DNA from: a virus
Taxonomy: Duplodnaviria > Caudoviricetes
Reading direction: 5' to 3' (one strand)
Virus record (IMG/VR): IMGVR_UViG_2751186034_000001
Span: 9,246 to 73,245 of that record
Length of the DNA: 64,000 bases
Below are positions 4,073 to 64,000 of this stretch, one piece after another; positions within the stretch are counted from its first letter, which is position 1, and the number at the start of each line of letters is the position of its first letter. A program made the position numbers and the translations under genes. The notes under the pieces are model-generated. The model saw only the letters and a program-made list of their open reading frames with translations, ran no database searches and had not been told where the DNA came from.

Positions 4073-4168
4073 ATGAGTAAGAACACGTCCGATCTGTCCT
4101 CCCACACCCCGATGATGCAGCAGTATGGGCTTGATCGATGCGCAAGCCACGTTAGGCGGGGCTTTTAA
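4073..4168 (+). pseudogene. mutS: Stranded native 5' end of mutS, fused to phage DNA
   Basis: Encodes [18 protein letters not shown] then [25 protein letters not shown] is identical to the MutS N-terminus at 61421. Confidence 0.9.
4102..4125 (+). repeat. attL core
   Basis: CCACACCCCgATGATGCAGCAGTA, 23/24 identical to 61438-61461; perfect 14-bp core ATGATGCAGCAGTA. Confidence 0.9.
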
Positions 4169-4175
4169 GGTTCCT

Positions 4176-4251
4176 CTGTCTAAAACCCTAGCGTCATTTT
4201 GGAGGCTTTAGGGGCAATAAAACCGGGTTAACGGCAGGCAGTATTAGACAG
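4176..4251. promoter_or_regulatory. Candidate integrase arm-type sites inside attL
   Basis: CTGTCTA (reverse complement TAGACAG) at 4176-4182; AGTATTAGACAG at 4240-4251, also present at 61368-61379. Confidence 0.6.
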
Positions 4252-4338
4252 TGAACCCCCCCCCGGCGTCCTGCCGATCTATATCAAATCCCAAGCTTCA
4301 AACGGCTGCTAAGCTGGTCACTCAAAAGAGGAAAAAGC

Positions 4339-4548
4339 ATGCCGAATTCAGACCTACTCCCCTCCCTGGTTACCAAGCTCTATGAAAATCAGCTGGCACT
4401 CGAAGCATCGATCATGGAGCTATCAAACTGGGTGGAGCAACGCGGCTCCGCTGAGGTCGCTGCGAATGTACGCGGCGCACTGGACACGCTCAGTCACAAT
4501 GAGGAATTCATCAAGCTCACATTGGCGGTGTTGATGTCGCCAGAGTGA
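4339..4548 (+). CDS. Hypothetical phage protein (69 aa)
   Basis: ORF with GAGGA RBS and helical composition. Confidence 0.6.
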   Translation: MPNSDLLPSLVTKLYENQLALEASIMELSNWVEQRGSAEVAANVRGALDTLSHNEEFIKLTLAVLMSPE

Positions 4549-4595
4549 CGCCATACAGCTCGTCGCTTCGAATCGCATCAGTGGCAAAGCTGGAT

Positions 4596-4615
4596 TACTG
4601 TATACACATACAGTA
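4596..4615. promoter_or_regulatory. LexA (SOS) box
   Basis: TACTGTATACACATACAGTA, near-perfect CTGT-N8-ACAG consensus, 20 bp upstream of the ORF at 4636. Confidence 0.85.
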
Positions 4616-4635
4616 AAAAATAAGCAGTCACTCAC

Positions 4636-5361
4636 ATGCCCCCTACAGAACTAAAAAAGGAATGGCTCGCCAAATGGCGGAGAATCCTCGACGACAACGC
4701 GTCCCGGATCGATAACCCCGAAGCTCATCGAATGATGTGCCGTTGGGAGACTCGTGACATGTTAGAGGCAGGGGTCATCGATGAGATGGAAAAATTTGAG
4801 ATGGATGAGCTGGCCGACGCGGCTTACTGGCATGCCGTTGAAGAGCTGGTCACCACACCTGCGGGATACACGTATGGCGGCTACTATGACGTCATTCAAC
4901 GAGCAACATCGGAGTGCGTCGGGTACATCCGAAGCAACACCTATTACTCAGCGCTCGGCCCAGGTGCTGATGGGTTTGATGGAAAGGTGTTTCGCGACAA
5001 GAATGATTTGCGACTGGTGTTCCGCAACGACAACCAGACTTGGGCGATAAATGGGTTGTTGCTTACCGCGCCATCTGGTGAGCTGTACGATCTGGTACAG
5101 ACCGCGCAATTTATCTATGGGCAGGTCTACCCAGTTATCTGCGATGCCGATATCTACCGTGCGCTGGTAGATTGCGCACAGGTCGCCTTGGAGAGCCGCG
5201 ATTTTGAGAGCTATCGCAAGGCCCGTCCTCTACTGCTCTCCGCCCAGTTCACCAAGTGCGGTGCCTGCCTGGACCGATTCGGACAGCGCGAAGATTGCAG
5301 CAACTGCACAGGTAACGGCTTTGTCAGTACAGCTGGCACTCAGCCGACGTCGTCCGCATAA
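4636..5361 (+). CDS. SOS-regulated hypothetical protein: N-terminal small helical domain, C-terminal CxxC-CxxCxGxG zinc finger
   Basis: 241 aa; CGAC...CSNCTGNG at the C-terminus; N-terminus aligns with the ORFs at 5340, 44247 and 45375. Confidence 0.7.
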   Translation: MPPTELKKEWLAKWRRILDDNASRIDNPEAHRMMCRWETRDMLEAGVIDEMEKFEMDELADAAYWHAVEELVTTPAGYTYGGYYDVIQRATSECVGYIRSNTYYSALGPGADGFDGKVFRDKNDLRLVFRNDNQTWAINGLLLTAPSGELYDLVQTAQFIYGQVYPVICDADIYRALVDCAQVALESRDFESYRKARPLLLSAQFTKCGACLDRFGQREDCSNCTGNGFVSTAGTQPTSSA

Positions 5362-5549
5362 CCTGCAACAGCCTCCTCGACCAGCTCGCGCCATTCTCCG
5401 CTGTCGATCACGCCTCGCTCCAACATGTTGTCGGCCAGTGCGAGGCGCGTTTCATAGCGATACTCAGGGCCGCCTGCCGTGAATTCGGCGTCATTGAGCA
5501 GCGCATGCCACGCTTCCATCTCGTTGACCTTCTGTATATCAGTTGTCAT
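5340..5549 (-). CDS. Small hypothetical protein (paralog family member)
   Basis: 69 aa with W...PE..Y...ADNMLERGVIDSGEWRELV motif; divergent from SRAP. Confidence 0.65.
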   Translation of the reverse strand: MTTDIQKVNEMEAWHALLNDAEFTAGGPEYRYETRLALADNMLERGVIDSGEWRELVEEAVAGYADDVG

Positions 5550-5632
5550 GACGAATCTCCGGTGCCGGTGTCTACAGTGTAGAGATCGGCCGGCGCGCGG
5601 CTGTTCATCAAGCCCGACGAGCGGAGACAGTT

Positions 5633-6322
5633 ATGTGCGGACGCCTTTCACAGTACAGCGGCATTCATGACTTCGTTGCGGCCCTCAGCATGCCGAACGC
5701 CATGGTCAACTCGGTCGGCGAACTGCCCCTGGAGCGATACAACGTCGCCCCCACCACCCAGGTCGCCGTGCTCCACGTACAGGGCGAACTCCTTTTGGCT
5801 GATCCGGTGCGCTGGGGATGGAGACCGCACTGGGCAACGGATCGCGCCGCGCCGATCAATGCCCGCGTCGAGAAAGTCGCCCACGGCCCGTTCTTCCGGG
5901 CAATCTGGCCGCACCGTGCAATCACACCAATCAATAACTGGTTTGAATGGGTCGATGAAGGCGGGCAGAAGAAACAGCCCTATCTGATCCGACGGCGCGA
6001 CGGGGCGCCGATCTACTGCGCCGCTATTGGCCAGCTACCCAACGCTAACGAAGGCCCAGGTGAGCATGACGGATTTGTGATCATCACTGCCGACAGCGCA
6101 GGCGGCATGGTGGACATCCATGACCGGCGGCCCGTGGTGCTGAATCCCGAACTGGCTCGCGAATGGTTGGACCCGGCCACCCCCAAGGAGCGCGCCGAGC
6201 AGATGGTGCTCCATCAGGGCGAGCCGGCCGAGGTGTTCGAGTGGTACAAGGTCGACACAGCCGTGGGCAATGTGCGCAACAAAGGCGAGACGCTGATAAC
6301 GCAAATTGGAGGTGTCAGCTGA
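5633..6322 (+). CDS. SOS response-associated peptidase (SRAP/YedK/HMCES family)
   Basis: N-terminal MCGR, RYNVAPT, NARVE, FEW and HDRRPVVL motifs. Confidence 0.95.
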   Translation: MCGRLSQYSGIHDFVAALSMPNAMVNSVGELPLERYNVAPTTQVAVLHVQGELLLADPVRWGWRPHWATDRAAPINARVEKVAHGPFFRAIWPHRAITPINNWFEWVDEGGQKKQPYLIRRRDGAPIYCAAIGQLPNANEGPGEHDGFVIITADSAGGMVDIHDRRPVVLNPELAREWLDPATPKERAEQMVLHQGEPAEVFEWYKVDTAVGNVRNKGETLITQIGGVS

Positions 6323-6473: not shown

Positions 6474-6980
6474 TTATTGCGTGATGGTCCTTACGTATGC
6501 CTGGCATGCCCGTAAAGCAATCAGTCCTCGATCCCCGTCGCCGGTGATGCCGAGAATTCTTTGAGCATGCGCTGGGTCAAGTTGGGCTCGACGGGCTGCA
6601 TGAACCACGCCGACGGCGCCGGTGGCGGTAGGCACGTTGCAGCCACCGGCTGTATCGGCTGCGTCGATAAGGACTGACAGCCGCACATCAGCAGTGGCAA
6701 GGCGATCGCGCAGAGCAGCTTGGGTACGTTGGGCATCGGTCAATTCCTTGGTGTGTTGTTGGTCCTGGATGGCCAACTGTTGCTCGGTGGCCAGGCGCTT
6801 GTCCTGCTCGGCGCGCGCTTGGGCGGAGGCAGCATTGGTGATCTCCGCCAGGTCCATCTGGTGCAGGTTGACCTGTTCGGCGAGCTTCTTGCCCATCCGC
6901 CAGTCCTGCACCTGCCAGGTGCCAGCGGCGCTAAGGACCATCGCCAGTAGGATCGCGCCCAGAATCTGCCCGGGCGTCAC
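6474..6980 (-). CDS. Rz-like inner-membrane spanin
   Basis: GTG start overlapping the endolysin stop, N-terminal TM, coiled coil, IALRACQAYV C-terminus. Confidence 0.9.
   Translation of the reverse strand: MTPGQILGAILLAMVLSAAGTWQVQDWRMGKKLAEQVNLHQMDLAEITNAASAQARAEQDKRLATEQQLAIQDQQHTKELTDAQRTQAALRDRLATADVRLSVLIDAADTAGGCNVPTATGAVGVVHAARRAQLDPAHAQRILGITGDGDRGLIALRACQAYVRTITQ
6521..6736 (-). CDS. Rz1-like outer-membrane spanin lipoprotein, embedded in Rz
   Basis: Lipobox LMCGC and a proline-rich stretch (CLPPPAPSAW), nested in the alternate frame. Confidence 0.8.
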   Translation of the reverse strand: MPNVPKLLCAIALPLLMCGCQSLSTQPIQPVAATCLPPPAPSAWFMQPVEPNLTQRMLKEFSASPATGIED

Positions 6981-7486
6981 GACATCACCCCGCCCGCCAG
7001 CCGGTACTGCTTCAGCAGATCCTCCAGGCGGTGTTCGCGCTGCCCGTATCCCGCGCCGGGCAGACTGGCCCAGATGTTCCGGCACTTCGCGATAGCCGTT
7101 TCAATCCGCCCGGCCACCACGTCGGGCAAAGCCCTGCACTCGCGTATGTGCTGCAGCGCCAGAAGGTCTTGGCTGATCGGGCTGAAGTCCGGCAGCTTGA
7201 GCAGCGCCTTGTAGTGCGGCCAGTCCTTCAGCATCTGCTGGTATCGGCCGGAAGCATTGGACGTCAGCCCCTTGCTGTTGATGACCTTCGACGCGCGCCC
7301 CTTGGCGAACGGGTGATCTGTGAAGTCCTTGAAGACCTCGGGCTTACGATCGGCTCCGGTGACGATCACGTCGTAACCGTCCATGGCCGTGGCCGGAGAT
7401 GTGCTGGTGCCCTCGGACCAGGCGAGCATGTCGAGGAACGCCAACGCGTTACGCCCGCCGGCGAGTGATTCGGAAAGTCGTGCCAT
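6977..7486 (-). CDS. Endolysin, lambda R-like lysozyme/transglycosylase
   Basis: AFLDMLAWSEGT, ASGRYQ, DFSPISQD and WASLPGAGYGQREH motifs. Confidence 0.9.
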   Translation of the reverse strand: MARLSESLAGGRNALAFLDMLAWSEGTSTSPATAMDGYDVIVTGADRKPEVFKDFTDHPFAKGRASKVINSKGLTSNASGRYQQMLKDWPHYKALLKLPDFSPISQDLLALQHIRECRALPDVVAGRIETAIAKCRNIWASLPGAGYGQREHRLEDLLKQYRLAGGVMS

Positions 7487-9737: not shown

Positions 9738-10060
9738 TTTTTGAACCTCATTACAAGCAACCTGAACTGTATTGTTGATCCTATAGCGCCCGGCTCATTT
9801 GGGTGTTTTGAGCGTACAACAACCGAACCGACGCCTACCGACATAAACGGCATAGCGCTGTAGCAGTAGTTGTTAGCCGCGGCCTGGGTAGGAAGTATGA
9901 CGGCTGTGCATGTTGCCGGGTTGAACCCGGCAATGTTTGCTGTAACTACGGCGCCCATGGCGAGCGTATAGACTGCATTGTGCAGCACCTGATAGGTGTA
10001 GCTGTCGGTATCCATTTCGAGCACGCCATTCGCGCTCCACGTCCTTACTCCATAAGTCAT
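9734..10060 (-). CDS. Tail tip accessory protein
   Basis: 108 aa, MTYGVRTWSANGVLEMDT, coupled to J. Confidence 0.65.
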   Translation of the reverse strand: MTYGVRTWSANGVLEMDTDSYTYQVLHNAVYTLAMGAVVTANIAGFNPATCTAVILPTQAAANNYCYSAMPFMSVGVGSVVVRSKHPNEPGAIGSTIQFRLLVMRFKN

Positions 10061-13000
10061 GGCGAAAGCCTCCCCACCAATACACGCAGAAGCTCGTTGA
10101 TGTCGTATACCGAAAGGCCATCGTTATTGAGCAGTGTCGAGCCACCGGTGCCGGCGCTACGAAGCGTGAACGTGCCGGCCTTGACATTGATCTCCAGTAA
10201 CGGCCGCCCCTTGGAGTCGACCGTCTCTGATTTCAGCGTCATCCCCAGAATGATCTCCTGGATAAAGGCCTTGCTGATAATTGCCTGATTGAGGACTACC
10301 TGGTTCCCCTGAACAACAAACATAGGAGTGAGCTGTCCGCTAACCTCGTCGACTACCGCAAAACGCTGCGCAAAAATCAGAAACTCCGACTGCTCGCCAT
10401 CTGAGCCAAACGCGAAGCCGGAGGCGACCGTCTTTCCTCCAGCAGTGGTTTGGGCCTTGAACGTAACCATCGACGAAACCTTCCCGTCGGTGGTGGCCTG
10501 AGCTTTGCTGACGACCTGAATAGCTGCCGAGTTATCGCCGGCAACCGCCTTTAGGGTTTTGATCTCTTCGGCAGTGGCAGCTTTGTCAGTTGCCACGGCT
10601 GTCTGCACGGTCGTGATGCTTGCCGCGTTCGCCGCCACATTCGCTTCGACAATATCTGTACGCTGCGACTGCGCGAAATCCCGCTCAGCAATTGCGGACA
10701 TCAACGACCAGGCCCCGGCCGAGGCGGTGTCATCACCCGCACTGCCCTGCTCCGAGCCTGCTGAGTCGGATTTCACCAACGCATAGACGCCTTCCAAGCG
10801 TTCGGCGGTGGCCGTGACCTTCCCGTCCACCTCTTCGATGGCTGCCTTGTTCTGGCTGATTTCCAGTGCCATCGCCGCATTCGTTTCGGCGATGGTGCCC
10901 AGGTTGAACCAGTAGTTGGCGTTCGGCGGTGTGGTGTTGACCGGTACCGCCTTGGTGGCCTGGAACAACTGCTGGCCTACCCGGACCATGTCGCCCTTGG
11001 CGTAGGTCTTTGTGGCGACGTACTCCAGAGCGTCGACCACTTCCGAGATCAGATCCTCCAGCTCCTGCTTAGCCTTCTCCAGACGATCGTTGACCGAGCC
11101 CGGTCCATCACCAGTAATCAGGTCGATCTCTTCCCGCAGGCTCTGGTACAGCGCACCCTTGCCGATCTTCTCGGCGAAGTACTTGTCGTACTCGGTCCGG
11201 TCAGAACTGGCCCGGCCATTCACGGCGCCCGGGATCGGCCAGAACGGCCCGACGTTGCCGGTACGGTCCACCAGGCGTGCCCAGAAGTAGAAGCTCGCCC
11301 CCGCCAGGATGTTCTGCATCTCGTGCTTGGCCTGCGGGTAGCTGAAGTCGCTCAGCTTCACCGCAGTGGTTAGGTCCGGTGACTGGCTGTACCACAACTC
11401 GGTGCGTTGGGTGTCCTCGGCGCCCGGCGGGAAGCCCCACTGGATGCCAATGCCATAGACCAGGCTGCTGGTGGTCAGGAACGCCACCGCCGGCGGCAGG
11501 CCAACCTTCCCTTCCAGGTTGGTCAAATTGGAGCTCTTCCAGATCGAGGAGATCTCGAAGGCGCTCACCGACCGAACCCGGGCCACGTAGGAGCCCGCGT
11601 AAATGCCGGTGACGTCGACGCTGGTCGAACCGGTGCGCTGCACCTTGATCCAGTTGCCGCTGTCCTTGCGCCACTCCACGTCATACGCGACCGCACCGTT
11701 CACGGCGGGCCACGAGATGTTCATGGTGCTGATCGCGAGGCCCTGGTTAACGGCGTAGCTTGACGTCAGCGTGACGCTCGCCGGCGCCGGAACGACGGTG
11801 ATCGGCACCACGCTGATTGGGCGTTCTTCCAGGCGCGCACCGGTATCGATGTGCGCGAACTTGCTCGGGTCATACTGCACGGCCGAGATTTCAAAGACGC
11901 CTGGCTCCGGCCGGGCCACGCTCACCACCCTGTATAACGGGATTGCCAGGTCGTCGGCATCCAGCGCCCACACCAGTTCGGGTTCGGGCGCAACGGAGTA
12001 GGCCACGGTAACGGTGACCTGCCGGCCGCTGACCAGTTGCACGGTGCGCCCCTCGCACTTGCCGTCGGGCAGGTTGAGGATCAATCGATCGCCGGGCTTG
12101 GCCTGGGTATCACGGTCCAGTGTGATGACCTTGCCGTTCACAGCAGCGATGCGCCCGCCCACCGGCCGACCGGCCAGGAGTTCGTCGGCGATCGGGATCA
12201 CGTAGCCAGGCAGCGGGATGCGCCCGTCGAGGCCGACCTTGAAGGTAACGGCCCGGTCCTTGGAGTTGGTGAGCAATGCCCACTTGCCCCGGCGCTGCGC
12301 CTCCGACTCGCGGGTGCAGCCGATGGCGCTGATCTCCAGCGGGTTGTCGCCGTAGCGGCGCTGCAGCTTGGCATCCGTAACGGCCGTGACGTCGGTGTCG
12401 TAGTTGTTCGCCGGGTTGTCGTAGCTGATCAGCGCGCGGCTGTACCGGGTGCGCTCCGACGCACTCGAGTAGGTGAACTTGCTGTCGATCACGTTCGCCC
12501 GGGTGTAGGCGAAGTCGAAATCAGTGGCGCGCGGCATGTCCGACAGCGTGAAGACCTGGCCCTGGGCCCAGTAGGTCATGCCCCGGTAGATCGCCGAAAT
12601 GTCGCGCAGCAGCGACCAGGCGTCAGCCTTGCTCTGCAGGTTCAGGTTGCAGATGAAGCGCGGCTCCTGGCCGCCCTTCCCGTCCGGTACCAGTTGGTCG
12701 CAGTACTGAGAGATGCGGTAAAGCTCCCACTTGTCGACCATCCAGGGTTTGATGCGGCGGCCAAGGCCGAAGCGGTCGGCCGTGGTGATGCCGTATGTAG
12801 CCCAGGTCGGATTGTTGGTGTAGGCCTCTTTGAGCGTTCCGTCCCAGATACCACTGTATGTCCGCGACACGGGGTCGTAGTTGCTTGGGACCTGCCATTT
12901 GCGAGCCTTGCAGCCGACGGTTACCGCTGGAATGCTGCGGAACTGCTCGGCCGAAAATTCGATGTAGAGCAGCGCGGTGTTCGGATAGCGGATCTTGGCG

Positions 13001-13656
13001 TCGATCACCTCAGTGAAGCCGGCGATCTGCATCGTGTCGGAGATTTTGTTGTTGTTCTGGTTGATCGTCAGGCGGGTGATGCGCATCAGCCAGCCGGCGG
13101 TAGCCTTGGGTAAATCGATACGACGAGTGCGCTCGTAAAGGCTGGTGGTCTTACCGTCGACCGCCTCACTCAGCACCTGCTGGTAGGCGCCGCCGTCGGT
13201 GGCGAGCTCAACTTTGTACTCAATCCGGTAGCCGTTGATGTTGTTGCTGGCATCCACAGACTGGAGCGCCGGCCAAGCAAAACGCACGCGCACGGCCGAA
13301 AGCTGGGTGTTACTGATTGCCCGAACCCACGGTGTGCCGCTGCGCAGCTCGGTACTGATGGTGGTCTCGTTCTCGATCGAGGGGATGCCCTGGATATAGG
13401 TCTGGTCCACGGCCCCGGTGCGCCACTCCCACTTCACGTTCGGGAAGTTCATGTTGCCCTGAGGATCTTGCAGCGGGGTGTTGTCGAGGTAAATGTCGCG
13501 AGCGGTTGGAGTGCCTTCGAACTCACCCTCTCCGATGGCAATCAGCATCTTGGCGATGGCAACAGAGCGCAGGCTATCCGGGGCTTCCGTTGGCGTTTTT
13601 GCTTTCTCTTCGCCGCCCTTGGCGCCGTGGATATCAATCTTGCGTGCTGCGCCCAT
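10057..13656 (-). CDS. Central tail fibre / host specificity protein J
   Basis: About 1199 aa from MGAARK; lambda J-like motifs (KIRYPNTALLYIEF, AYTNNPTW, EPRFICN), FN3 and C-terminal coiled coil. Confidence 0.95.
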   Translation of the reverse strand: MGAARKIDIHGAKGGEEKAKTPTEAPDSLRSVAIAKMLIAIGEGEFEGTPTARDIYLDNTPLQDPQGNMNFPNVKWEWRTGAVDQTYIQGIPSIENETTISTELRSGTPWVRAISNTQLSAVRVRFAWPALQSVDASNNINGYRIEYKVELATDGGAYQQVLSEAVDGKTTSLYERTRRIDLPKATAGWLMRITRLTINQNNNKISDTMQIAGFTEVIDAKIRYPNTALLYIEFSAEQFRSIPAVTVGCKARKWQVPSNYDPVSRTYSGIWDGTLKEAYTNNPTWATYGITTADRFGLGRRIKPWMVDKWELYRISQYCDQLVPDGKGGQEPRFICNLNLQSKADAWSLLRDISAIYRGMTYWAQGQVFTLSDMPRATDFDFAYTRANVIDSKFTYSSASERTRYSRALISYDNPANNYDTDVTAVTDAKLQRRYGDNPLEISAIGCTRESEAQRRGKWALLTNSKDRAVTFKVGLDGRIPLPGYVIPIADELLAGRPVGGRIAAVNGKVITLDRDTQAKPGDRLILNLPDGKCEGRTVQLVSGRQVTVTVAYSVAPEPELVWALDADDLAIPLYRVVSVARPEPGVFEISAVQYDPSKFAHIDTGARLEERPISVVPITVVPAPASVTLTSSYAVNQGLAISTMNISWPAVNGAVAYDVEWRKDSGNWIKVQRTGSTSVDVTGIYAGSYVARVRSVSAFEISSIWKSSNLTNLEGKVGLPPAVAFLTTSSLVYGIGIQWGFPPGAEDTQRTELWYSQSPDLTTAVKLSDFSYPQAKHEMQNILAGASFYFWARLVDRTGNVGPFWPIPGAVNGRASSDRTEYDKYFAEKIGKGALYQSLREEIDLITGDGPGSVNDRLEKAKQELEDLISEVVDALEYVATKTYAKGDMVRVGQQLFQATKAVPVNTTPPNANYWFNLGTIAETNAAMALEISQNKAAIEEVDGKVTATAERLEGVYALVKSDSAGSEQGSAGDDTASAGAWSLMSAIAERDFAQSQRTDIVEANVAANAASITTVQTAVATDKAATAEEIKTLKAVAGDNSAAIQVVSKAQATTDGKVSSMVTFKAQTTAGGKTVASGFAFGSDGEQSEFLIFAQRFAVVDEVSGQLTPMFVVQGNQVVLNQAIISKAFIQEIILGMTLKSETVDSKGRPLLEINVKAGTFTLRSAGTGGSTLLNNDGLSVYDINELLRVLVGRLSP

Positions 13657-13715
13657 GCTTTCCTCCAGGCAATAAAAAACCGCCTCTTGGGCGGCTGCGG
13701 TGCTGCGGGTTTCTG

Positions 13716-14327
13716 CTACATCTGGTCTTCGGCGTAGATGGCGGCGCTGATAATTGCGCCACCCCACCGGCGCTCGCCTATACAAAGCGGTACCGGGTTA
13801 CCGGATGCAGTGGTGTTCTTGGCGCTGCCGAAGGCATAGCCGGGGGTGTTCTCTGGCGCGGCGCTGGTCTTGAGGCCGCCGGCCTGGGGGCTGAGCATTT
13901 GGATTACGCCGCCCAGCACCATCGATCCGCCCATCATGATCAATGCCGAGCCGAAAGGGGCCATGGTGCCGAAGCTGCCACCGGTGATCACCAAGCCAAC
14001 GACGATGAGTACGGCTCCAATGATTGTTTGTAGGGCGCCACCCCGTTTACTGCCTGTGATTACCGGTGCGATCCGGATGCTTCCTTCGCCGGAAAAACCG
14101 AGCTCTTTTTCTTCAAGATTTTTCGATCCGCGGAAAACCGCAAATTCGACACCTCGCGATTTTGCATTCGACAGGAACCGCTCAAAGCCGGGAATCTGGA
14201 CGCACAGAGCTTTAACTGCTTCTGCCGGCGTCCTTACGACCATCCGAAAGGACCTCCCAAACTGACGAAGCTGTCCGTAGAGCAGGATCGTGGTCATGGG
14301 CTGATAATTGATGGCAAGTGCCGCCAT
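13716..14327 (-). CDS. Tail assembly protein I
   Basis: LYGQLRQFG...TPAEAVKAL, YAFGSAKNT and GNPVPLCIGER motifs. Confidence 0.9.
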   Translation of the reverse strand: MAALAINYQPMTTILLYGQLRQFGRSFRMVVRTPAEAVKALCVQIPGFERFLSNAKSRGVEFAVFRGSKNLEEKELGFSGEGSIRIAPVITGSKRGGALQTIIGAVLIVVGLVITGGSFGTMAPFGSALIMMGGSMVLGGVIQMLSPQAGGLKTSAAPENTPGYAFGSAKNTTASGNPVPLCIGERRWGGAIISAAIYAEDQM

Positions 14328-16531: not shown

Positions 16532-16533
16532 AG

Positions 16534-17286: not shown

Positions 17287-17295
17287 GGATAGGCC

Positions 17296-51599: not shown

Positions 51600-51606
51600 G
51601 GTCGCC

Positions 51607-54275: not shown

Positions 54276-54332
54276 CCCACCCTACTCGCTGCATCCGGTA
54301 ACCGGAGGGCGGCGCCTGACTGGAGACAATCC

Positions 54333-54776
54333 ATGAGCAACATTCCCCCGCGCCCGAAGGCCGACAAAGTAATGATCCTTGCGGCTTGCACCCTTGTTGC
54401 TGAGAAGATCAACGGCGATGCCGAAACCATCGCCAAGCACTACCGTCGCCACATGGACGGTTTTGAGCTGGCAAAGGAACTCGATAAGTACGCGTCCTGG
54501 GACACCACGCGTGATGATATGGATGCGCTGGACGAGGTCGACTATCTCGTAGATCGGGCCGAGGGCCTGGCGGTTAAAGCGTGGGCTGAAGAGTTCAAGC
54601 CCGAACCGCCGCTGCCTATTGGCACCAGGGTAAAACAAGGCGTGATCACGCGGATCTACGAGCACACCCCAGCCACGTACTGCGTCAAAGAAGACGGCTG
54701 CACCAACGATACCCGCAGCCTGCTGATCAAGTTCGAAGACGCCGTAGCCGTCCGGCTCCATGCCGGTCACCCGTAA
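54333..54776 (+). CDS. Hypothetical phage protein
   Basis: 147 aa with GGAG RBS. Confidence 0.6.
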   Translation: MSNIPPRPKADKVMILAACTLVAEKINGDAETIAKHYRRHMDGFELAKELDKYASWDTTRDDMDALDEVDYLVDRAEGLAVKAWAEEFKPEPPLPIGTRVKQGVITRIYEHTPATYCVKEDGCTNDTRSLLIKFEDAVAVRLHAGHP

Positions 54777-54814
54777 TACCCCATATCAATCTCGGACGCA
54801 GATATTTTTAGATT

Positions 54815-55054
54815 CTAGCTTGAGCGAACTATGAAAACTGCCGCTATCGCAATCACAGCGACGACTCCAAACACCATCCGTGCGAGCCAAGGAGCTGTTA
54901 GCCAGACGCCGGTAACCCCGGCAATCTGCCCAATGTTTTTTTCGCTGAAATAGCGGCCAGATGGCGGCTCGCGAAAAGGATTTCCGCAGTGGGGGCAGGA
55001 GTAGGCTTTATCAGAGATTTTTGCAGAGCATTCAGGGCAGTCAATTAGGCTCAT
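54815..55054 (-). CDS. Zinc ribbon plus TM protein (antisense moron)
   Basis: CPEC...CPHCG followed by hydrophobic segments. Confidence 0.7.
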   Translation of the reverse strand: MSLIDCPECSAKISDKAYSCPHCGNPFREPPSGRYFSEKNIGQIAGVTGVWLTAPWLARMVFGVVAVIAIAAVFIVRSS

Positions 55055-55147
55055 GATTTTTTGTCCGTTTTAATTAATGGCTGCAAACCAATATGAAGAC
55101 TTCATTTTCTGATTTTGGTTCTGCGGGAAATCATATGAGCCCACTCA

Positions 55148-55333
55148 TTAACGAATCACGCCAGCCGGCTCAGTAGCAGGCAGGCCGGCGAGGTCACGCC
55201 ACTTCGCCAGGTCAGCGATCAACTTAAGTCCTGGGCGCACCTCAGCTTCGAGCGCTTCATCAGGAAGGCTCAGCAGGCGGACAACCTCAGCGCCGATCAG
55301 GCGTATCGCTTACACATCGGTTTTCGTGCTCAT
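55148..55333 (-). pseudogene. Small ORF interrupted by TAA at codon 8
   Basis: MSTKTDV*AIRLIGAEVVRLLSLPDEALE...GVIR*; the frame is otherwise open. Confidence 0.5.
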
Positions 55334-55411
55334 CGCAGTCACCGTCAGGTTTTTGCTGAGTGCAAATCATCAACCCAATTTACGAATCACGCCAGCAGGC
55401 GAGGATCCCCT

Positions 55412-57469
55412 ATGTCCGCACAACAGAAGAAACACCCCTTCGATTTCAAAACCCAATACGGACTCGGCTTCAACCCTCAGGACGATGAGATCGTTGTCGA
55501 CTTCTTCTGTGGCGGCGGCGGGGCCGGTACCGGGCTTGAAATGGGCTTGGGCCGCACGGTGAACGTGGCGAAGAATCACAGCCCGCAAGCGATCAGCATG
55601 CACACCGTCAATCACCCAGGTGCCAAGCACTTCACCACCGACGTGTTCGAGGGTGATCCGGACACCGAGTGCGGCGGCCGCCCGGTCGGCTGGTTCCACA
55701 TGTCACCGGACTGCACGCACCACAGCCAGGCGGCCGGCGGCCAGCCGCGCAAGCGCGAAATCCGGAACCTTTCATGGATCGGGCTCAAGTGGGCAGGTAT
55801 GAAGCGGCCCCGGGTGATCAGCTTGGAAAACGTGAAGCAGATCCTTCAGTGGGGCCGCCTGATCGCCAAGCGCGACAAGGCCACCGGCCGCGTGGTCAAG
55901 CTGGACGGCAACATTGCTGCACCTGGTGAGGTTGTCCCGGTGGGCCAGCAGTTCCTAATCCCTGACCCGAAACAGCGCGGCCGCACTTGGCGCCGTTTCG
56001 TGGCCCTGCTGGAAGGCATGGGCTATGTCGTTGAGTGGAAGGTGATCAAGGCATGCGACTTCGGTGCGCCGACCAGCCGTGAACGCCTGTTCATGATTGC
56101 GAGGTGCGACGGCCAGCCAATCGTGTGGCCGGAGCCAACCCACGCCAAGAACCCCACCAAGGGTCAGCAGAAGTGGAAGACAGCCGCCGACTGCATCGAC
56201 TTCACCGACCTGGGCAAAAGCATCTTTGGCCGCAAGAAAGACCTGGCCCCGGCCACACTGCGCCGCGTTGCCAAGGGCATGAAGAAGTTCGTCATCGACA
56301 GCGCGTCGCCGTTCATTGTGCCGATAGCCAACTGGTCAGGTGAGGCGGTGCAGTCTGCCGATGAGCCACTGCGCACCGTCACCTCCTACCCGAAGGGCGG
56401 CGCCTTCTCGGTGGTCAGCCCGATCATTGCCCCAGCTACCCACCAGGGCAGCGACCGAATCAATGATCCACTTGAACCGCTGCCGACAGTGACCTGCGCA
56501 AACCGCGGGGAGCTGACGCTGATCAGTCCCACGCTGATTCAGTCAGGGTACGGCGAGCGGCCGGGCCAGGAGCCGCGAGTGCCTGGTCTGGATCAACCAC
56601 TGGGTACGGTGGTCGCCGGCGGCGTGAAGCACGCTCTCGCAGCCGCGCACCTGGTGAAGTTTCGATTCAACGACGCGGGCAAGGCGCTGGATGAGCCACT
56701 GCCGACCATCACCAGCGGCGGCAACTATCAGCGCCCGGCCGGCGCCGCTCACGCCATGGGCATATCCACGGTGTTCATGGCGCAAATGAATGGCGGCTTC
56801 AACACCACTGACGCCAAGAGCATAGAAGACCCGATGACCACGGTGACCAACACCGGTAGCCAGCAACAGCTGGTGGCGGCAAACCTGGTGCACTTGCGCG
56901 GCAACTGCGATGCACGGGACGCCAATGACCCGCTGCACACCGTCAGCGCCGGTGGCCAGCACCACGGGTTGGTGAGCGCATTCATGGAGCGGGCATTCGG
57001 CGGCAGCATTGGCCAGGGCCTGGAGGAACCGGCGCCAACCATTACCGCCGGTGGCGGGGGCAAGAGTTCGCTGGTTTCGCTCACCCTTTCGCCCGAACAC
57101 GAAGCCGGTGCCCTCCGCGTAGCCGCTTTCCTGATCAGCTACTACGGTACCGAGAACATCAGCGCTTGCGACTCGCCGGCGCCGACGATCACCACCAAGG
57201 ACCGCCTGGCCATGGTCACCGTGATGGTCAAGGGCGCCCCCTACGTGATCGTCGACATCTGCCTGCGGATGCTGAAGCCGTCCGAACTGTACAAGGCCCA
57301 GGGCTTCCCAGCCGACTACATCATCAGCCACGGTGCCGACGGCAAGCCGTTTACCAAAACCCAGCAGGTGCACATGTGCGGTAACAGCGTCAGCCCGCCG
57401 CCGATGGCAGCGCTGGCACGCGCCAACGACCCGTGGCGATTGTCATCTTTTCAATCAGTGGCGGCTTAA
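55412..57469 (+). CDS. C5 DNA cytosine methyltransferase with expanded variable region
   Basis: DFFCGGGG, SPDC, ENV, RER and GNSV motifs; eight P-x-x-T-[IV] repeats. Confidence 0.9.
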   Translation: MSAQQKKHPFDFKTQYGLGFNPQDDEIVVDFFCGGGGAGTGLEMGLGRTVNVAKNHSPQAISMHTVNHPGAKHFTTDVFEGDPDTECGGRPVGWFHMSPDCTHHSQAAGGQPRKREIRNLSWIGLKWAGMKRPRVISLENVKQILQWGRLIAKRDKATGRVVKLDGNIAAPGEVVPVGQQFLIPDPKQRGRTWRRFVALLEGMGYVVEWKVIKACDFGAPTSRERLFMIARCDGQPIVWPEPTHAKNPTKGQQKWKTAADCIDFTDLGKSIFGRKKDLAPATLRRVAKGMKKFVIDSASPFIVPIANWSGEAVQSADEPLRTVTSYPKGGAFSVVSPIIAPATHQGSDRINDPLEPLPTVTCANRGELTLISPTLIQSGYGERPGQEPRVPGLDQPLGTVVAGGVKHALAAAHLVKFRFNDAGKALDEPLPTITSGGNYQRPAGAAHAMGISTVFMAQMNGGFNTTDAKSIEDPMTTVTNTGSQQQLVAANLVHLRGNCDARDANDPLHTVSAGGQHHGLVSAFMERAFGGSIGQGLEEPAPTITAGGGGKSSLVSLTLSPEHEAGALRVAAFLISYYGTENISACDSPAPTITTKDRLAMVTVMVKGAPYVIVDICLRMLKPSELYKAQGFPADYIISHGADGKPFTKTQQVHMCGNSVSPPPMAALARANDPWRLSSFQSVAA

Positions 57470-57477
57470 GTGCAACC

Positions 57478-58260
57478 CTACCTAAGCCATAACCCTAAAG
57501 AAATGAAGTCCGAAAAACGAGCGGACTTTATATCTTTAAGAACTTCGGATTCTTTAGGGATAATTGATATTTTATAATTGTATCGATCTTCAAAAACCCC
57601 AGCTGCAACAAACCTATCTCCATAAGCAGCAACAAGAGCATACTCTTCACCATCAAGCATTACGGTTGAATAATTGGTTTTCCAATGTGCAACGCCGAAC
57701 CCTATACCCCGAATCATGAACACTACGCAGAGTGTAAAAATTAACACCGATGCCCACATGTAGAGATAGTCTCGAAATATCATAGATCTAGCGGGCACTT
57801 CCGATTTACTCCGTTCGAGCACTCCCTCTGAGTCTGCAAATTCGCTGAGCGCGTGCTCCAGCCCTCTAGATCTAGCTTTATATAGTATTTTTATAAGGGT
57901 CCATGCTAGATAAGCAAAAGAGCCCGAAAGGAGAACTTTCATCACTGTCGACTGAAATCCCGTAATGTAGAAGCCGAACATAGTGAACACCGGGTACAAC
58001 AAAGGAAGTGCAGCAGCGCGTATTTTTTTAGAGTCAGACTGCAGTAAAAACAAAAAAGCGTAAAGAAAAACAAACAATGGAAGCAAGACTACAATCACAC
58101 AAACCAACGCAACTACCATAACTTTCAAATCAACCTCAATAAAATAGTAATCATACCCAAACGCATCCGCATACCCCATCTCAAAAATAAATGATACGAC
58201 AAACGCTAGTACCGGCAGGGAAGCCAATAAAAAACTGTCCCTATTCAAGAATTCCTTCAC
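57478..58260 (-). CDS. Low-GC multi-TM membrane protein (antisense moron)
   Basis: 260 aa with about five TMs and a soluble C-terminus; visibly AT-rich. Confidence 0.7.
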   Translation of the reverse strand: MKEFLNRDSFLLASLPVLAFVVSFIFEMGYADAFGYDYYFIEVDLKVMVVALVCVIVVLLPLFVFLYAFLFLLQSDSKKIRAAALPLLYPVFTMFGFYITGFQSTVMKVLLSGSFAYLAWTLIKILYKARSRGLEHALSEFADSEGVLERSKSEVPARSMIFRDYLYMWASVLIFTLCVVFMIRGIGFGVAHWKTNYSTVMLDGEEYALVAAYGDRFVAAGVFEDRYNYKISIIPKESEVLKDIKSARFSDFISLGLWLR

Positions 58261-58427
58261 GCGATTATCTCCATTGATAGTAAGAGCCGTTCGAGTATGT
58301 CTGAATCGTTGCTGTGCAGCGAGTTATTGAAGCGATGCCAAGAGCAATAAGCGTCGTAATCATCTAAGGAGTACATCCGTACCCCTCTCCCTTCAAAGTC
58401 AGCCGCTATAGCGGCAAGGACGAAGTC

Positions 58428-59078
58428 ATGCCTGAAATAAAGGAACGCCCCATCCTGTTCTCGGCGCCGATGGTGCGCGCCATCCTGGAAGGTCGGAAGA
58501 CGGTCACGCGGCGGGCGGTGAAACCGCAGCCAGAAGTACGCATGGTCGACATGATCGGCCCAATGCTGACTTTCAAAAATAAGCGGGGCGGCCATTGGCT
58601 TTATCCGAATGCCAAAGCACAAATCATCGCTGACTGCCCCTATGGCAAGCCAGGCGACCGGCTGTGGGTGCGCGAGACCTGGTACTGCGATCACTTCGAA
58701 GTAATGCGCGGACCCTACCTCAAGCCGGATGATCTGGACATCCGTGAAGCGCTCGAGGACGGGACGCTGGTCTACGCCGCCGACGGGCTGACCCCGTACG
58801 AGCAGGAGCAGCCAACCTGGAAACCCAGCATCCACATGCCGCGCTGGGCCTGCCGCATCCTGCTGGAGATCACCGACGTGCGCGTCGAGCGGTTGCAGGA
58901 CATCAGCGCCGACCAATGCCGGCGCGAGGGATATCCAGCAGATCGGCAAGCGGAAACTGGCGGTAGCGATATGGACGCGTGGCTTTGGTTTCGGGATTTG
59001 TGGCAGCAGATAAACGGCCCTGAAAGCTTCGGCGATCAGCGGGTCTGGGTGGTCGAGTTCAAGCGGGTGACGCCATGA
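58428..59078 (+). CDS. ASCH/PUA-like phage protein
   Basis: PILFSAPMVRAILEGRKTVTRR and WKPSIHMPR motifs. Confidence 0.6.
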   Translation: MPEIKERPILFSAPMVRAILEGRKTVTRRAVKPQPEVRMVDMIGPMLTFKNKRGGHWLYPNAKAQIIADCPYGKPGDRLWVRETWYCDHFEVMRGPYLKPDDLDIREALEDGTLVYAADGLTPYEQEQPTWKPSIHMPRWACRILLEITDVRVERLQDISADQCRREGYPADRQAETGGSDMDAWLWFRDLWQQINGPESFGDQRVWVVEFKRVTP

Positions 59079-59131
59079 TCGCCACCCTCTGGTTCGCCTA
59101 CGTCTTCATCTACCGAGGTCCAAAGCCATGA
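59075..59131 (+). CDS. 18-aa hydrophobic peptide
   Basis: MIATLWFAYVFIYRGPKP; ATGA overlaps at both ends. Confidence 0.45.
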   Translation: MIATLWFAYVFIYRGPKP

Positions 59132-59460
59132 ACGATTGTGAGCTTTTGGATCTGGCGGCGAAGGCGGCAGGCATTGATCTCGAAGAAAACCGCCACTGCC
59201 CTTCCGGCGGGATGTGGATTGTCGATAAAAAGTCAGGACTGGATGTCGTCTGGTCCCCGCTGACCAATGACGGCGATGCGCAGCGCCTGGCAACAAGCCT
59301 TCAGCTCAGCATCCTCTGGCTCACCAACCTGCAATACGTGATGGTGGAGCGCCGCGGTTTCGGCGAGAACATCGGCTGGACCGATGACGCGGGCCGAGGT
59401 GGCGCGCTCCGCAGAGCAATCACCGCCGTCGCAGCACAAATCGGCAGCACGCTTCCATAA
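59128..59460 (+). CDS. Hypothetical phage protein
   Basis: 110 aa, WSPLTNDGDAQRLA...RRAITAVAA. Confidence 0.6.
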   Translation: MNDCELLDLAAKAAGIDLEENRHCPSGGMWIVDKKSGLDVVWSPLTNDGDAQRLATSLQLSILWLTNLQYVMVERRGFGENIGWTDDAGRGGALRRAITAVAAQIGSTLP

Positions 59461-59509
59461 CCCCAATCCCCCTACATGCCTGCCGGTGAGCGGCGGGCGG
59501 AGCTATGCC

Positions 59510-59917
59510 ATGAGCAGACAAGTAACCGAGATGGATTTCCGAAAGCCTGAATTTCGCCACGAGAAGGTAGAGGACTACGAATTCCGGGATGACGGGGCAA
59601 TTGTCCGCAAGGATCGATGGGTCAGCGGAATGCGGCAGATCAGTTCAATCATGGGCAATCGCGGCGGGTTTGAAATTGAAGACGTGGTCAGTCAGGTCCT
59701 CACCCTCAAGGGCAACTGGCAAGACGCCGACCCAGAGGAAGACCCAGCCGTAGACCTGATTGATGTGCGCCTATCCTGCGGCAGCATTTTGGCCGGTTGC
59801 GAGCGAACTGGTGAGTTTGCTTACTACTGGCCGTTCGGAACCATCGAGCTTACCGCCAAGGATTTCGGCGCCGATGCCGTCGAGTGGAAGCTGAGCTACA
59901 CAAAGCCAACCCAATAA
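59510..59917 (+). CDS. Hypothetical phage protein
   Basis: 135 aa from MSRQVT. Confidence 0.55.
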   Translation: MSRQVTEMDFRKPEFRHEKVEDYEFRDDGAIVRKDRWVSGMRQISSIMGNRGGFEIEDVVSQVLTLKGNWQDADPEEDPAVDLIDVRLSCGSILAGCERTGEFAYYWPFGTIELTAKDFGADAVEWKLSYTKPTQ

Positions 59918-59953
59918 CCCACCTTCTGCCGCCCAGCGCGGCAAGGACACCCC

Positions 59954-60172
59954 ATGTTCGCTATGAAACTCACCCTGACTGTACTGGGCGCCCTGTTGTA
60001 CCTGGTAGGAACCCTCGGCTGGTTCTTATGGGCCGGGCTTGACCTGCTGGACACCGGCACCACCGAGGCACTGCTCTACGCCTTCGCCGGCACATGCGCC
60101 TGGCTGCTGATCAGCTTCGGCCTGGCCATCCACATCATCAAGACAGCGCGGCCCACGGTGGGCGGGAGGTAG
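59954..60172 (+). CDS. Two-TM small membrane protein
   Basis: 72 aa hydrophobic ORF with AAGGA RBS. Confidence 0.6.
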   Translation: MFAMKLTLTVLGALLYLVGTLGWFLWAGLDLLDTGTTEALLYAFAGTCAWLLISFGLAIHIIKTARPTVGGR

Positions 60173-60174
60173 AA

Positions 60175-60369
60175 ATGTTTTTGACAGCAGAGGAAGTTGC
60201 CGACCTGACCGGCTACAAGAAGCCAGGGGCACAGATAAAGTGGCTGACCGCAGAACGATACGGGTTCGCGGTAGGTGGTGATGGTCACCCGAAGGTGCTG
60301 CGCCAAGTTGTCATCGGGCGACTGGGTGGTATTCAATCAAGGAAGGGGCCGGAGTTGCGGCTGTGCTGA
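60175..60369 (+). CDS. xis: Excisionase (DUF4224-like)
   Basis: MFLTAEEVADLTGYK...Q.KWL, directly upstream of int. Confidence 0.8.
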   Translation: MFLTAEEVADLTGYKKPGAQIKWLTAERYGFAVGGDGHPKVLRQVVIGRLGGIQSRKGPELRLC

Positions 60370-60379
60370 GGTGAGATAG

Positions 60380-61369
60380 ATGCGACCGCGCAAGAAGGAC
60401 CGGCACCTGCCAGCGTGCATGTACCAGAAGCACGGCGCCTACTACTTAGTCCGCAAGGGCAAGTGGTTGCGCCTTGGCACGGATTTTCAGGCGTCTCTCG
60501 CTGAGTACGCCATGCTTCTGGACAAGCGCAGCATGGGCGGAATGCCCAAACTGATCGACGACGCGCTGGAACACATGCGCACCAGGACAAAGCCGCCGCT
60601 GAAGCCGAACACGCTCAAGCAGTACGAGGCGGCTTGCGAGCGGCTGAAGGAGACCTTCGCCGACTTCGAGCCGCGCGAGGTGCTTCAACGCCACGTCGTG
60701 GCGCTCAAGTTGCACATGGCGGACACGCCGAACATGTCGAACCGGGTGATCTCGGTACTGCGGGCGGTGTTCACCTACGCACTGGAGCAGCAGATCGTCG
60801 ACTCGAATCCGTGCATCGGCGTACGGCGGCACCTAGAACACAAGCGCGACAGGTACATCACCCATGGCGAGTTCCAGGCGATCTGCGCCAACTCAAGCGA
60901 CAACATGCGCGTCATCTACGAGATGTGCTACCTGACCGGCCAGCGCATCGGTGATGTGCTGTCCATCCGATTGGCCGACATCAGCGCCGAAGGCATTGCA
61001 TTCAAGCAGGAGAAGACGAACGCAAGGTTGCTGGTGCAAATGACTCCAGACCTGGAAGACCTGATCGCGCGCGCAAAGGCGCTGCCTAGGAAGATCCGTG
61101 GGCTCACGCTGTTCTGTTCCCCGCGCGGCGGCAAGCCAGTGCACTACAGCTCGGTGAAAGATGCCTTCGCAATCAGTTGCAGGAAGGCCGGCGTTGAAGA
61201 TGCAAGCCTCCATGACCTGCGCGCCAAGTCGCTTTCCGACACGGACGACCAGGGCAACGACGCACAGAAGCTCGGTGGCCATACCGATGCAAAGATGACG
61301 CAACGTTATCTGCGCCTGCGTAAAATCAACGTGGGCCTCCCGCCGACAATGCCGAAAAAATCCCTGTAG
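60380..61369 (+). CDS. int: Tyrosine integrase
   Basis: TGQRIGD, HDLRAK, LGGH and TQRY catalytic motifs; N-terminal arm-binding region. Confidence 0.95.
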   Translation: MRPRKKDRHLPACMYQKHGAYYLVRKGKWLRLGTDFQASLAEYAMLLDKRSMGGMPKLIDDALEHMRTRTKPPLKPNTLKQYEAACERLKETFADFEPREVLQRHVVALKLHMADTPNMSNRVISVLRAVFTYALEQQIVDSNPCIGVRRHLEHKRDRYITHGEFQAICANSSDNMRVIYEMCYLTGQRIGDVLSIRLADISAEGIAFKQEKTNARLLVQMTPDLEDLIARAKALPRKIRGLTLFCSPRGGKPVHYSSVKDAFAISCRKAGVEDASLHDLRAKSLSDTDDQGNDAQKLGGHTDAKMTQRYLRLRKINVGLPPTMPKKSL

Positions 61370-61401
61370 TATTAGACAGATGTACTTTGTCAAATAGACA
61401 G
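61368..61401 (+). promoter_or_regulatory. Candidate integrase arm-type sites inside attR
   Basis: AGTATTAGACAG at 61368-61379 and TAGACAG at 61395-61401. Confidence 0.6.
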
Positions 61402-61420
61402 GAAGAGCTGAACGCCCCGT

Positions 61421-64000
61421 ATGACAGACCTTTCAAGCCACACCCCAATGATGCAGCAGTACTGGCGCTTGAAAAACCAGCACCCTGATCAGTTGATGTT
61501 CTACCGCATGGGCGACTTCTACGAGATCTTCTACGAAGACGCGAAGAAGGCTGCCAAGTTGCTGGACATCACGCTGACCGCGCGCGGGCAGTCGGCGGGG
61601 CAGTCAATTCCGATGTGTGGGATTCCTTACCACTCCCTCGAAGGCTATCTGGCCAAGCTGGTAAAGCTGGGCGAGTCGGTGGTGATCTGCGAGCAGATCG
61701 GCGATCCGGCCACCAGCAAAGGCCCGGTGGAACGTCAGGTGGTGCGCATCATTACGCCGGGTACGGTGAGTGATGAAGCGCTGCTGGATGAGCGTCGCGA
61801 TAACTTGATCGCGGCGGTGCTGGGGGATGAGCGCTTGTTCGGCCTGGCCGTGCTGGATATCACCAGCGGCAATTTCACAGTCCTGGAGATCAAGGGCTGG
61901 GAGAACCTCCTGGCGGAGCTGGAGCGCATTAATCCCGTGGAGTTGCTGATCCCGGACGATTGGCCCAAGGATTTGCCGGCGGAAAAACGGCGTGGGACCA
62001 AACGTCGCGCGCCGTGGGATTTCGAGCGTGACTCGGCGCTCAAGAGCCTGTGCCAGCAATTCTCCGTGCAAGACCTTAAAGGCTTCGGTTGCGAAACCCT
62101 GACCCTGGCCATCGGCGCCGCCGGTTGCCTGCTCAGCTATGCCAAGGAAACCCAGCGCACCGCCCTGCCGCACTTGCGCAGCCTGCGCCACGAACGCTTG
62201 GACGATACCGTGGTGCTCGATGGCGCCAGCCGTCGCAACCTGGAGCTGGACACCAATCTGGCCGGCGGGCGCGACAATACTTTGCAATCGGTGGTCGACC
62301 GTTGCCAGACCGCCATGGGCAGCCGCCTGCTGACCCGTTGGCTGAACCGTCCGCTGCGGGATCTGAAGGTGCTGCAAGCACGCCAATCCTCCATCACCTG
62401 CCTGCTGGATGGTTACCGCTTTGAAAAGCTGCAGCCGCAGCTCAAGGAAATCGGCGATATCGAGCGCATTCTGGCGCGGATCGGCCTGCGAAATGCGCGC
62501 CCGCGCGACCTGGCGCGCCTGCGCGATGCGCTCGGCGCCCTGCCGCAATTGCAAGCAGCCATGACGGAACTGGACGCGCCGCACCTGCAACAACTGGCCG
62601 TGACCACCAGCACCTACCCGGAACTGGCGGCGCTGCTGGAAAAAGCCATCATCGATAACCCGCCGGCCATCATCCGTGACGGTGGCGTACTGAAGACCGG
62701 TTACGACAGCGAACTGGATGAGTTGCAAGCCCTGAGCGAAAACGCCGGGCAATTCCTTATCGACCTGGAAGCCCGCGAAAAAGCCCGCACTGGCCTGGCC
62801 AATCTGAAGGTCGGCTACAACCGCGTGCATGGCTACTTTATCGAGCTGCCCAGCAAACAGGCCGAGCAGGCACCGATCGACTATCAGCGCCGCCAGACAC
62901 TTAAAGGTGCCGAACGCTTTATCACCCCGGAGCTTAAGGAGTTCGAAGACAAGGCACTGTCAGCCAAAAGCCGAGCCTTGGCGCGGGAAAAGATGCTGTA
63001 TGAGGCGCTGCTCGAAGACTTGATCGGCCAACTGGCGCCGCTGCAAGACACGGCTGCAGCGTTGTCGGAACTGGACGTGTTGAGCAACCTGGCCGAACGC
63101 GCCCTCAACCTCGACCTCAACTGTCCGCGGTTCGTCAGCGAGCCATGCATGCGCATCGTGCAGGGGCGTCACCCGGTGGTGGAGCAGGTGCTGACCACGC
63201 CGTTCGTCGCCAACGATCTGTCGCTGGATGACGATACCCGCATGCTGGTGATCACCGGTCCGAATATGGGCGGTAAATCCACCTACATGCGCCAGACGGC
63301 GTTGATCGTGTTGTTGGCGCATATCGGCAGTTTTGTGCCGGCGGCCAGTTGCGAGCTGTCCCTGGTAGACCGGATTTTCACCCGGATCGGCTCCAGCGAC
63401 GACCTGGCCGGTGGGCGTTCGACCTTTATGGTGGAAATGAGCGAGACCGCCAATATCCTGCATAACGCTACCGAACGCAGCCTGGTGCTGATGGACGAAG
63501 TGGGTCGCGGCACCAGCACCTTCGACGGGCTGTCCCTGGCTTGGGCCGCCGCCGAGCGCCTGGCACACCTACGCGCCTACACGCTGTTCGCCACCCACTA
63601 TTTCGAGCTGACCGTACTACCGGAAAGCGAGCCGCTGGTGGCCAACGTGCACTTGAACGCGACCGAGCACAACGAGCGTATCGTGTTTCTGCACCATGTA
63701 TTGCCGGGGCCGGCCAGTCAAAGCTACGGCCTGGCTGTTGCGCAACTGGCCGGTGTGCCGGACGACGTGATCAGCCGCGCCCGCGAACACCTCAGTCGCC
63801 TGGAAACCACTGCGTTACCCCACGAAACTGCGGTAGTCAGTCCCGCCAAGACTCAGCGACAAAGTGCCGCGCCACATCAGAGCGATCTCTTCGCCAGCCT
63901 GCCCCACCCCGTGCTGGATGAACTGGCCAAGCTGGAGCTGGACGATCTGACGCCGCGTAAAGCACTCGAAATGTTATATGCACTGAAGACTCGGATATAA
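61421..64000 (+). CDS. mutS: DNA mismatch repair protein MutS with phage-supplied 5' end
   Basis: 859 aa; [30 protein letters not shown] and ATHYFEL motifs; stop at 64000. Confidence 0.98.
61438..61461 (+). repeat. attR core
   Basis: CCACACCCCaATGATGCAGCAGTA, matching 4102-4125. Confidence 0.9.

Follow-up and report, generated by a model that had tools for sequence, protein, structure and literature searches.

A lambdoid prophage inside Pseudomonas mutS whose attachment site carries a replacement 5' end of the gene

We analysed a 64,000-nt stretch of viral and host DNA (the window), which is part of the provirus record IMGVR_UViG_2751186034_000001 (IMG/VR, positions 9,246 to 73,245), and which holds a prophage lying within the Pseudomonas mismatch-repair gene mutS. 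Our favoured explanation, to which we give a probability of roughly 0.7, is that a lambdoid temperate phage integrated at a short core in mutS by means of its tyrosine integrase (Int), that its own 5' module rebuilds the full-length gene, and that lysogeny is close to neutral for the mutation rate. Int would recombine the phage attachment site (attP) with a 14-bp core in the MMQQY codons of the host gene, which would displace the native promoter and the first 13 codons and leave them 57 kb away, facing the left end of the phage, and the phage module would bring the gene back into frame with a new start and probably a promoter. The most likely purpose of this arrangement would be a near-invariant chromosomal landing site while mismatch repair keeps working. 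Such a site would be available throughout the genus at little cost to the host, since the 23-mer coding for HTPMMQQY was carried by 395 of 401 Pseudomonas species genomes. These genomes were an even sample of the genus, and the counts below that are given out of 401 genomes refer to it; one of them, G104, is flagged as unpublished.

The 14-bp core (ATGATGCAGCAGTA) was present in two copies, at 4113-4126 (attL) and 61449-61462 (attR), and both copies were preceded by CACACCCC plus one G/A difference. The core corresponds to the M-M-Q-Q-Y codons within the HTPMMQQY-coding stretch, and the whole 23-mer occurred exactly twice in the 73-kb provirus record, so the shared core is not a chance match. 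Comparison of the seven codons examined before the core showed that five differed between host and phage (GAT/GAC, CTG/CTT, TCC/TCA, TCC/AGC and CCG/CCA), every one of them synonymously. The two flanks of the window, with the repressor gene, the intergenic region and the mutS stub on one side and mutS on the other, abutted at the core in six prophage-free relatives. The unoccupied genome L053 had a near-identical MSKNTSDLSS start joined straight to WRLKNQH and the rest of mutS, and the stub MSKNTSDLSS matched the intact genes of L053 and L054. On the right side, the int stop codon occupies 61367-61369 and the mutS ATG lies at 61421, which leaves a gap of 51 bp, and the chimeric gene beginning there encodes 859 amino acids (aa) with all five MutS Pfam domains (I-V), so far as its sequence goes a functional-looking protein. 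The initial annotation of this DNA had read it as a prophage that splits mutS and supplies a replacement 5' end, with five synonymous codon differences before the core and with mutS 51 bp downstream of int in the orientation of the early-left (PL) operon, and the two cores, the abutting flanks, the long open reading frame (ORF) and the codon-by-codon comparison all bear this out. The change of the N-terminus from MSKNTS to MT is within natural variation, because native Pseudomonas MutS N-termini span MDVSAHTP to MNKAISDLSSHTP. The gene was full length in every lysogen whose locus extended to the gene end, and it was intact in lysogens of a dozen species.

The replacement start belongs to attP, because it is present in the free genome of the related phage phiAH14a (KU708004), whose integrase was 95% identical to that of the window. 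The free genome has, in order, int, a short spacer, an ATG with nine MutS codons, the full core, and DNA unrelated to mutS that matches the attL side of the window. Mitomycin C induction yielded this phage in packaged form (Dziewit and Radlinska 2016, PMC4936722), and that paper mentions neither mutS nor attP nor the integration site. The attP layout, the core and the arm sites are as in the window, and the structural module was about 86% identical over half of the late region, but the early region was mostly unlike that of the window (11% covered); the window prophage is thus a mosaic relative of phiAH14a. Matches to TATTAGACAG, which are candidate Int arm-type sites, were found at 4176-4185, 4242-4251 and 61370-61379, with a looser copy at 61393-61402, and the P arm was conserved in three further attL junctions as well as in the phiAH14a attP. 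We also observed that about 40 nt of phage DNA directly after the core (4127-4170) were conserved relative to three other loci, in the form TGGGCT.GA ... AGGCC ... GGCTTT with a short inverted repeat; the short peptide that it would encode was not conserved, and the stretch might serve as a protein-binding site close to the core or as a sib-like element.

The initial annotation had asked whether relatives of the integrase always target mutS. More than 1,300 protein clusters matched the window integrase at E <= 1e-20, and the best 120 matches were all at least 60% identical, every organism-named one of them coming from Pseudomonas or a sister genus. Among relatives on genome contigs (62-96% identity), the mutS start was located just downstream in 11 of 12, and the twelfth contig ended too early. 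The genome survey gave an integrase relative in 12 of 401 genomes (3%), and all 12 sat at the mutS start. A P. aeruginosa phage with a 55%-identical integrase had the same core after MNKPNTDIAQHTP codons. Thus, the integrase clade of 55-97% identity adjoins the mutS start in every relative with readable downstream DNA, and for this close clade the expectation held. For distant relatives it did not: no integrase match of 25-42% identity had mutS nearby in a class-level sample of 400 genomes (two of the genomes with such matches, G546 and G713, are flagged as unpublished), so a tie to the mutS elements of Vibrio, E. coli and Burkholderia could not be shown. The Bordetella phage PHB09 has a 42%-identical integrase and likewise a 14-bp core inside a gene, but it targets and disrupts a pilin gene (PMC7010805), which indicates that mutS targeting is confined to the closer clade.

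We also tried a second copy of the 23-mer as a count of occupied sites, and this measure was rejected because it over-counted: 9 of the 19 genomes with at least two copies were without a close integrase relative. The extra copies in those nine genomes were assembly duplicates (G257 and G305) or attP-like or truncated copies far from mutS. In seven genomes the second copy was flanked by neither mutS nor the native mutS upstream region; it lay 0.1-1.8 Mb from mutS on the same contig in four of them, often on the opposite strand, and on a separate contig in two (G365 and G360). These seven copies look like attP-like or truncated fragments, and perhaps mark other elements lodged elsewhere, or rearrangements.

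Comparison of 21 distinct versions of the phage module indicated how the replacement start is maintained. An in-frame start was always there, the H, T and P codons varied at third positions only, and the four residues before H-T-P varied about as much as native N-termini do. This supports the initial proposal that selection acts on the phage-borne start and codons, and it would be a selection that keeps MutS whole.

The mutS upstream regions of Pseudomonas were of at least three types. The window host has type A, which is unrelated in sequence to the phage module; type B is also unrelated to the phage segment. The mean alignment score of the window segment against type C was 10, and that of the L007 phage segment was 25, compared with -13.4 +/- 4.1 for shuffled sequences, so that module and type C scored 5-8 standard deviations over the shuffled controls, and also over types A and B. 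The pattern of CCTGTA, a gap of 55-85 nt and the 23-mer occurred in 62 of 401 genomes, where about 3 would be expected by chance; 7 of these genomes were lysogens, and the other 55 were without an integrase relative. We fetched 28 integrase-less loci with the pattern and found int in none of them; most adjoin prtR or cinA-recA, and the rest show no such marker. One lysogen (G400) carried the resident version of the module at attL and the phage version at attR. By these alignments, the DNA that the phage carries between the int stop and the core is a homolog of the type C DNA resident ahead of mutS in about 55 prophage-free Pseudomonas species. Relics of earlier integration were considered as an explanation for the left junction of G003 (L020) and for the DNA ahead of mutS in G259, G066 and G342, and this was rejected, since G003 has a single int and the pattern is clade-wide; these regions are instead resident type C modules homologous to the phage module.

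The module therefore has a relationship to host DNA that bears on its origin, and it looks, from sequence comparison, like a captured or exchanged native mutS 5' module and not like a makeshift start. In a tree of 100-nt modules, the window-type phage modules grouped with one of the host subtypes (support 92/90) and those of the L007 type with a different one, with weak branches, which is a hint of repeated exchange between phages and hosts. We consider it possible, at somewhat less than even odds, that the module is a native promoter, leader and start captured from another Pseudomonas lineage, with phage and host versions exchanged more than once, and that it doubles as the P' arm for Int. 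An aberrant excision of the lambda-gal kind, joining the end of int to host DNA left of attL, would yield exactly such an attP. If this were true, temperate phages would carry the regulatory region and N-terminus of a core DNA-repair gene between members of a genus and substitute one version for another.

Cargo between int and the module bears on how mutS may be transcribed in lysogens. In 6 of the 12 sampled lysogens, 0.6-2.2 kb of additional DNA was found at this position, and the segment retained next to mutS always started at or beside CCTGTAG. In L001, the one lysogen locus of this kind that was scanned for terminators, int was followed by a strong bidirectional terminator with a 12-bp stem. 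Because cargo and terminator follow int there, mutS of L001 cannot depend on read-through from int, and with cargo in half of the sampled lysogens, co-transcription of int and mutS cannot be the general rule. The junction of int and the left arm of attP appeared as a cargo hot spot in its own right (L001:3999-4973, L005/L033, L006, L008/L035, L028, L031 and G211). The L001 cargo comprised a reverse-strand gene for a P-loop protein of 264 aa, which has a GAGKT motif and by eye resembles a zeta toxin, perhaps a small partner gene, and the terminator, and the L001 phage integrase had a different C-terminal tail.

Some points weigh against our favoured explanation. Promoter prediction gave no sigma-70-like sequence within the module or over the final 1.5 kb ahead of mutS; the AGGAAG that precedes the surrogate ATG is 14 nt away from it and was not conserved among the 21 versions; and type C hosts could have their resident promoter further upstream than the segment that the phage carries. 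Scans of 59900-61600, 54000-61500, 3700-4700 and L001 3900-5120 found no sigma-70-like promoter ahead of either start, surrogate or native, and consensus matching therefore could not locate the promoter. If the favoured explanation is correct, the module would contain a working promoter and the lysogen would have a near-normal level of MutS.

The strongest rival is a regulatory switch, in which the module would express mutS at another level or in response to other signals than the native promoter, so that lysogeny and excision toggle the mutation rate with the gene unbroken. Candidate causes would be binding of Int or of the excisionase (Xis) at arm sites overlapping the module, or read-through from PL on induction. 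The lack of sequence relationship between the type A region and the phage module speaks for such a switch, as does the presence of two candidate arm sites for Int less than 50 bp from the surrogate ATG, and no terminator was found separating mutS from the PL-oriented operon in the window. The idea was raised for cleanly excising elements by Chu et al. (2017, PMC5296598). The initial annotation had gone from a weak ribosome-binding site and the lack of a clear promoter to possible phage control of the mismatch-repair level, and we could not follow this step: the native mutS starts that we saw were, like the surrogate ones, without a Shine-Dalgarno sequence, a homolog of the module drives mutS permanently in about 55 sampled species, and the cargo in half of the lysogens and the L001 terminator stand against it as well. 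We therefore regard the switch as unlikely.

A second rival is that mutS is effectively silent in the lysogen, which would make the host a true mutator while the prophage stays, resembling the block of mutL transcription by SpyCI. The missing promoter prediction and the poor ribosome-binding site would fit it, but the apparent purifying selection on the phage-borne start and codons, the intact gene in lysogens of so many species and the residence of the same kind of module upstream of mutS in many hosts all oppose it, and a V. splendidus element leaves MutS functional while integrated (PMC5296598), so we think it very improbable. Least probable of all is a scar-forming excision as in Vibrio splendidus 12B01, where a small mutS deletion gives a heritable hypermutator: it is the same kind of element in the same motif, but the two core copies here are perfect 14-bp repeats, the core is complete in the phiAH14a attP and the P. 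putida F1 element left no scar (PMC5296598). Under the favoured explanation, excision by Int and Xis across the perfect core should restore the native gene scar-free.

Phage 21 and e14 in icd and phages in tRNA genes are familiar cases of integration within a gene whose displaced end is duplicated in attP (Campbell's reviews). The window prophage resembles them in that attP holds a copy of the displaced gene end with silent differences and the target stays functional, but they replace a 3' end and here the 5' end is replaced, and therefore the phage must also supply the start of transcription and of translation. The closest known system was described by Chu et al. (2017, mBio 8:e02045-16; PMC5296598), who found integrase-bearing elements in the mutS HTPMMQQ motif of hundreds of Beta- and Gammaproteobacteria. 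Their elements range from 4 to >150 kb, and some are prophages; in each case the native start is orphaned upstream, and the element brings a start and promoter region of its own. Among the 27 Pseudomonas strains in their Table S2 are P. fluorescens WH6, P. synxantha BG33R, P. putida F1 and fluorescens-group ones. Excision was shown to be scar-free for the P. putida F1 element and to leave a 2-bp deletion, and hence a hypermutator, in V. splendidus 12B01, and they proposed that excision switches mutS between two regulatory regions, Pseudomonas included (PMC5296598). The window agrees with these elements in its tyrosine integrase adjoining mutS (51 bp), in the insertion point inside the HTPMMQQ-coding motif, in the orphaned upstream start matching the native start of relatives, and in the element-supplied start that keeps mutS in frame and full length. 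Because this arrangement was already published in 2017, also for Pseudomonas, the window prophage is a further example of it. It differs from the 12B01 element in that it should excise cleanly, and Chu et al. treat the element's start and promoter as independent, whereas the window segment turns out to be homologous to DNA that is resident upstream of mutS in Pseudomonas. In Streptococcus pyogenes, SpyCI at mutL is likewise a phage-like element in a mismatch-repair locus, but it breaks up the mutS-mutL operon, and its host is a mutator for as long as it is integrated (PMC4129442). Integration of that type abolishes expression of the mismatch-repair gene; here the reading frame of mutS is rebuilt, led by its own start and by DNA homologous to a native upstream region.

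The coordinates of the features are given in Table 1. The prophage has the gene set of a lambdoid temperate siphovirus, with CI, O-like initiator, helicase, terminase, portal, head, tape measure, J and spanin genes and with int/xis at the early-left end, and CheckV completeness of the provirus record was 100. The early-left operon lies on the + strand with the DUF4224 gene and int at its end, and the DUF4224 protein is a putative excisionase by its position only. Within this operon we observed an unusually long C5 cytosine DNA methylase (685 aa, 55412-57469), whose phiAH14a counterpart is a much shorter methyltransferase, and an AT-rich minus-strand gene (57478-58260) for a 260-aa multi-pass membrane protein, which interrupts the operon. 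The sole + strand promoter-like matches upstream of int fall antisense inside the latter gene.

Table 1 Features of the window and their coordinates
Feature	Position	Strand	Basis
Host R-tailocin cluster start: baseplate genes, holin-like gene, PrtR-like repressor (3118-3852)	1-3852	-	repressor: Peptidase_S24 + HTH_3 match
Native type A mutS upstream region, now severed from mutS	3853-4072	+	aligns with DNA upstream of intact mutS in prophage-free relatives
Orphaned native mutS start, ATG 4073 (MSKNTSDLSS...)	4073-4126	+	frame enters phage DNA, stops near 4168
attL core ATGATGCAGCAGTA	4113-4126	+	
Phage P arm, candidate Int arm-type sites 4176-4185 (inverted) and 4242-4251	4127-4260	+	motif search
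Prophage body, lambdoid siphovirus, 57,322 bp	4127-61448		PHROGs matches
Rz-like spanin	6474-7085		
Tail protein J	10057-13785		
Tape measure	17634-20717		
Major head	25187-26149		
Portal	28033-29580		
Large terminase	29448-30764		
DnaB-like helicase	36518-37918		
O-like initiator	37915-38739		
CI-like repressor, same strand as int and mutS	39785-40690	+	phrog_4, phrog_6201
DUF4224 protein just before int	60175-60369	+	PF13986, E = 1.7e-11
Tyrosine integrase (int), 329 aa	60380-61369	+	PF00589
mutS 5' module (P' arm), ~86 bp, CCTGTAG (holds int stop) to ATG 61421 + nine codons MTDLSSHTP	61363-61448	+	
Chimeric mutS, 859 aa, ATG 61421 (MTDLSS...), first nine codons phage, remainder host	61421-64000	+	
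attR core	61449-61462	+	

On the host side, a tailocin cluster is the usual left neighbour of mutS in fluorescens-group Pseudomonas, in the mutS-cinA tailocin locus (PMC2647930, PMC4684702). In one type C host (L101, G003:C1:474000-493700, ~16100-19450), the DNA separating mutS from the tailocin repressor carried genes for a LysR regulator, an amino-acid permease and a dioxygenase-like protein, which fits the 'metabolic cargo' of Ghequire et al. 2015. The displaced native mutS promoter of the window faces the left end of the phage, with a 69-aa ORF (4339-4548), a 241-aa ORF (4636-5361) and an SRAP (PF02586) gene (5633-6322), and no terminator was predicted between this promoter and the left-end ORFs (window 4127-6322), so in the lysogen these accessory genes of the phage may be driven by host mutS transcription.

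As the basic arrangement has been on record since 2017, the window contributes a further example and no discovery. Added here are the clade-wide adjacency of the integrase to mutS, the attP in the packaged phage phiAH14a, the homology of the module, on sequence grounds, to a resident region, and the cargo between int and module. The mutation rate is a key evolvable trait, and a mobile element replacing the mutS start is therefore a candidate for modulating it; here, near-neutral integration is the better supported reading. The cargo-insertion variants mean that mutS cannot generally rely on int transcription. Linking the phenomenon to the growable phage phiAH14a provides a tractable system for comparing lysogen and cured cells. 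The surrogate 5' end is homologous to the resident region in about one-seventh of the sampled Pseudomonas species, which suggests that phages mediate turnover in the regulatory DNA of a housekeeping repair gene.

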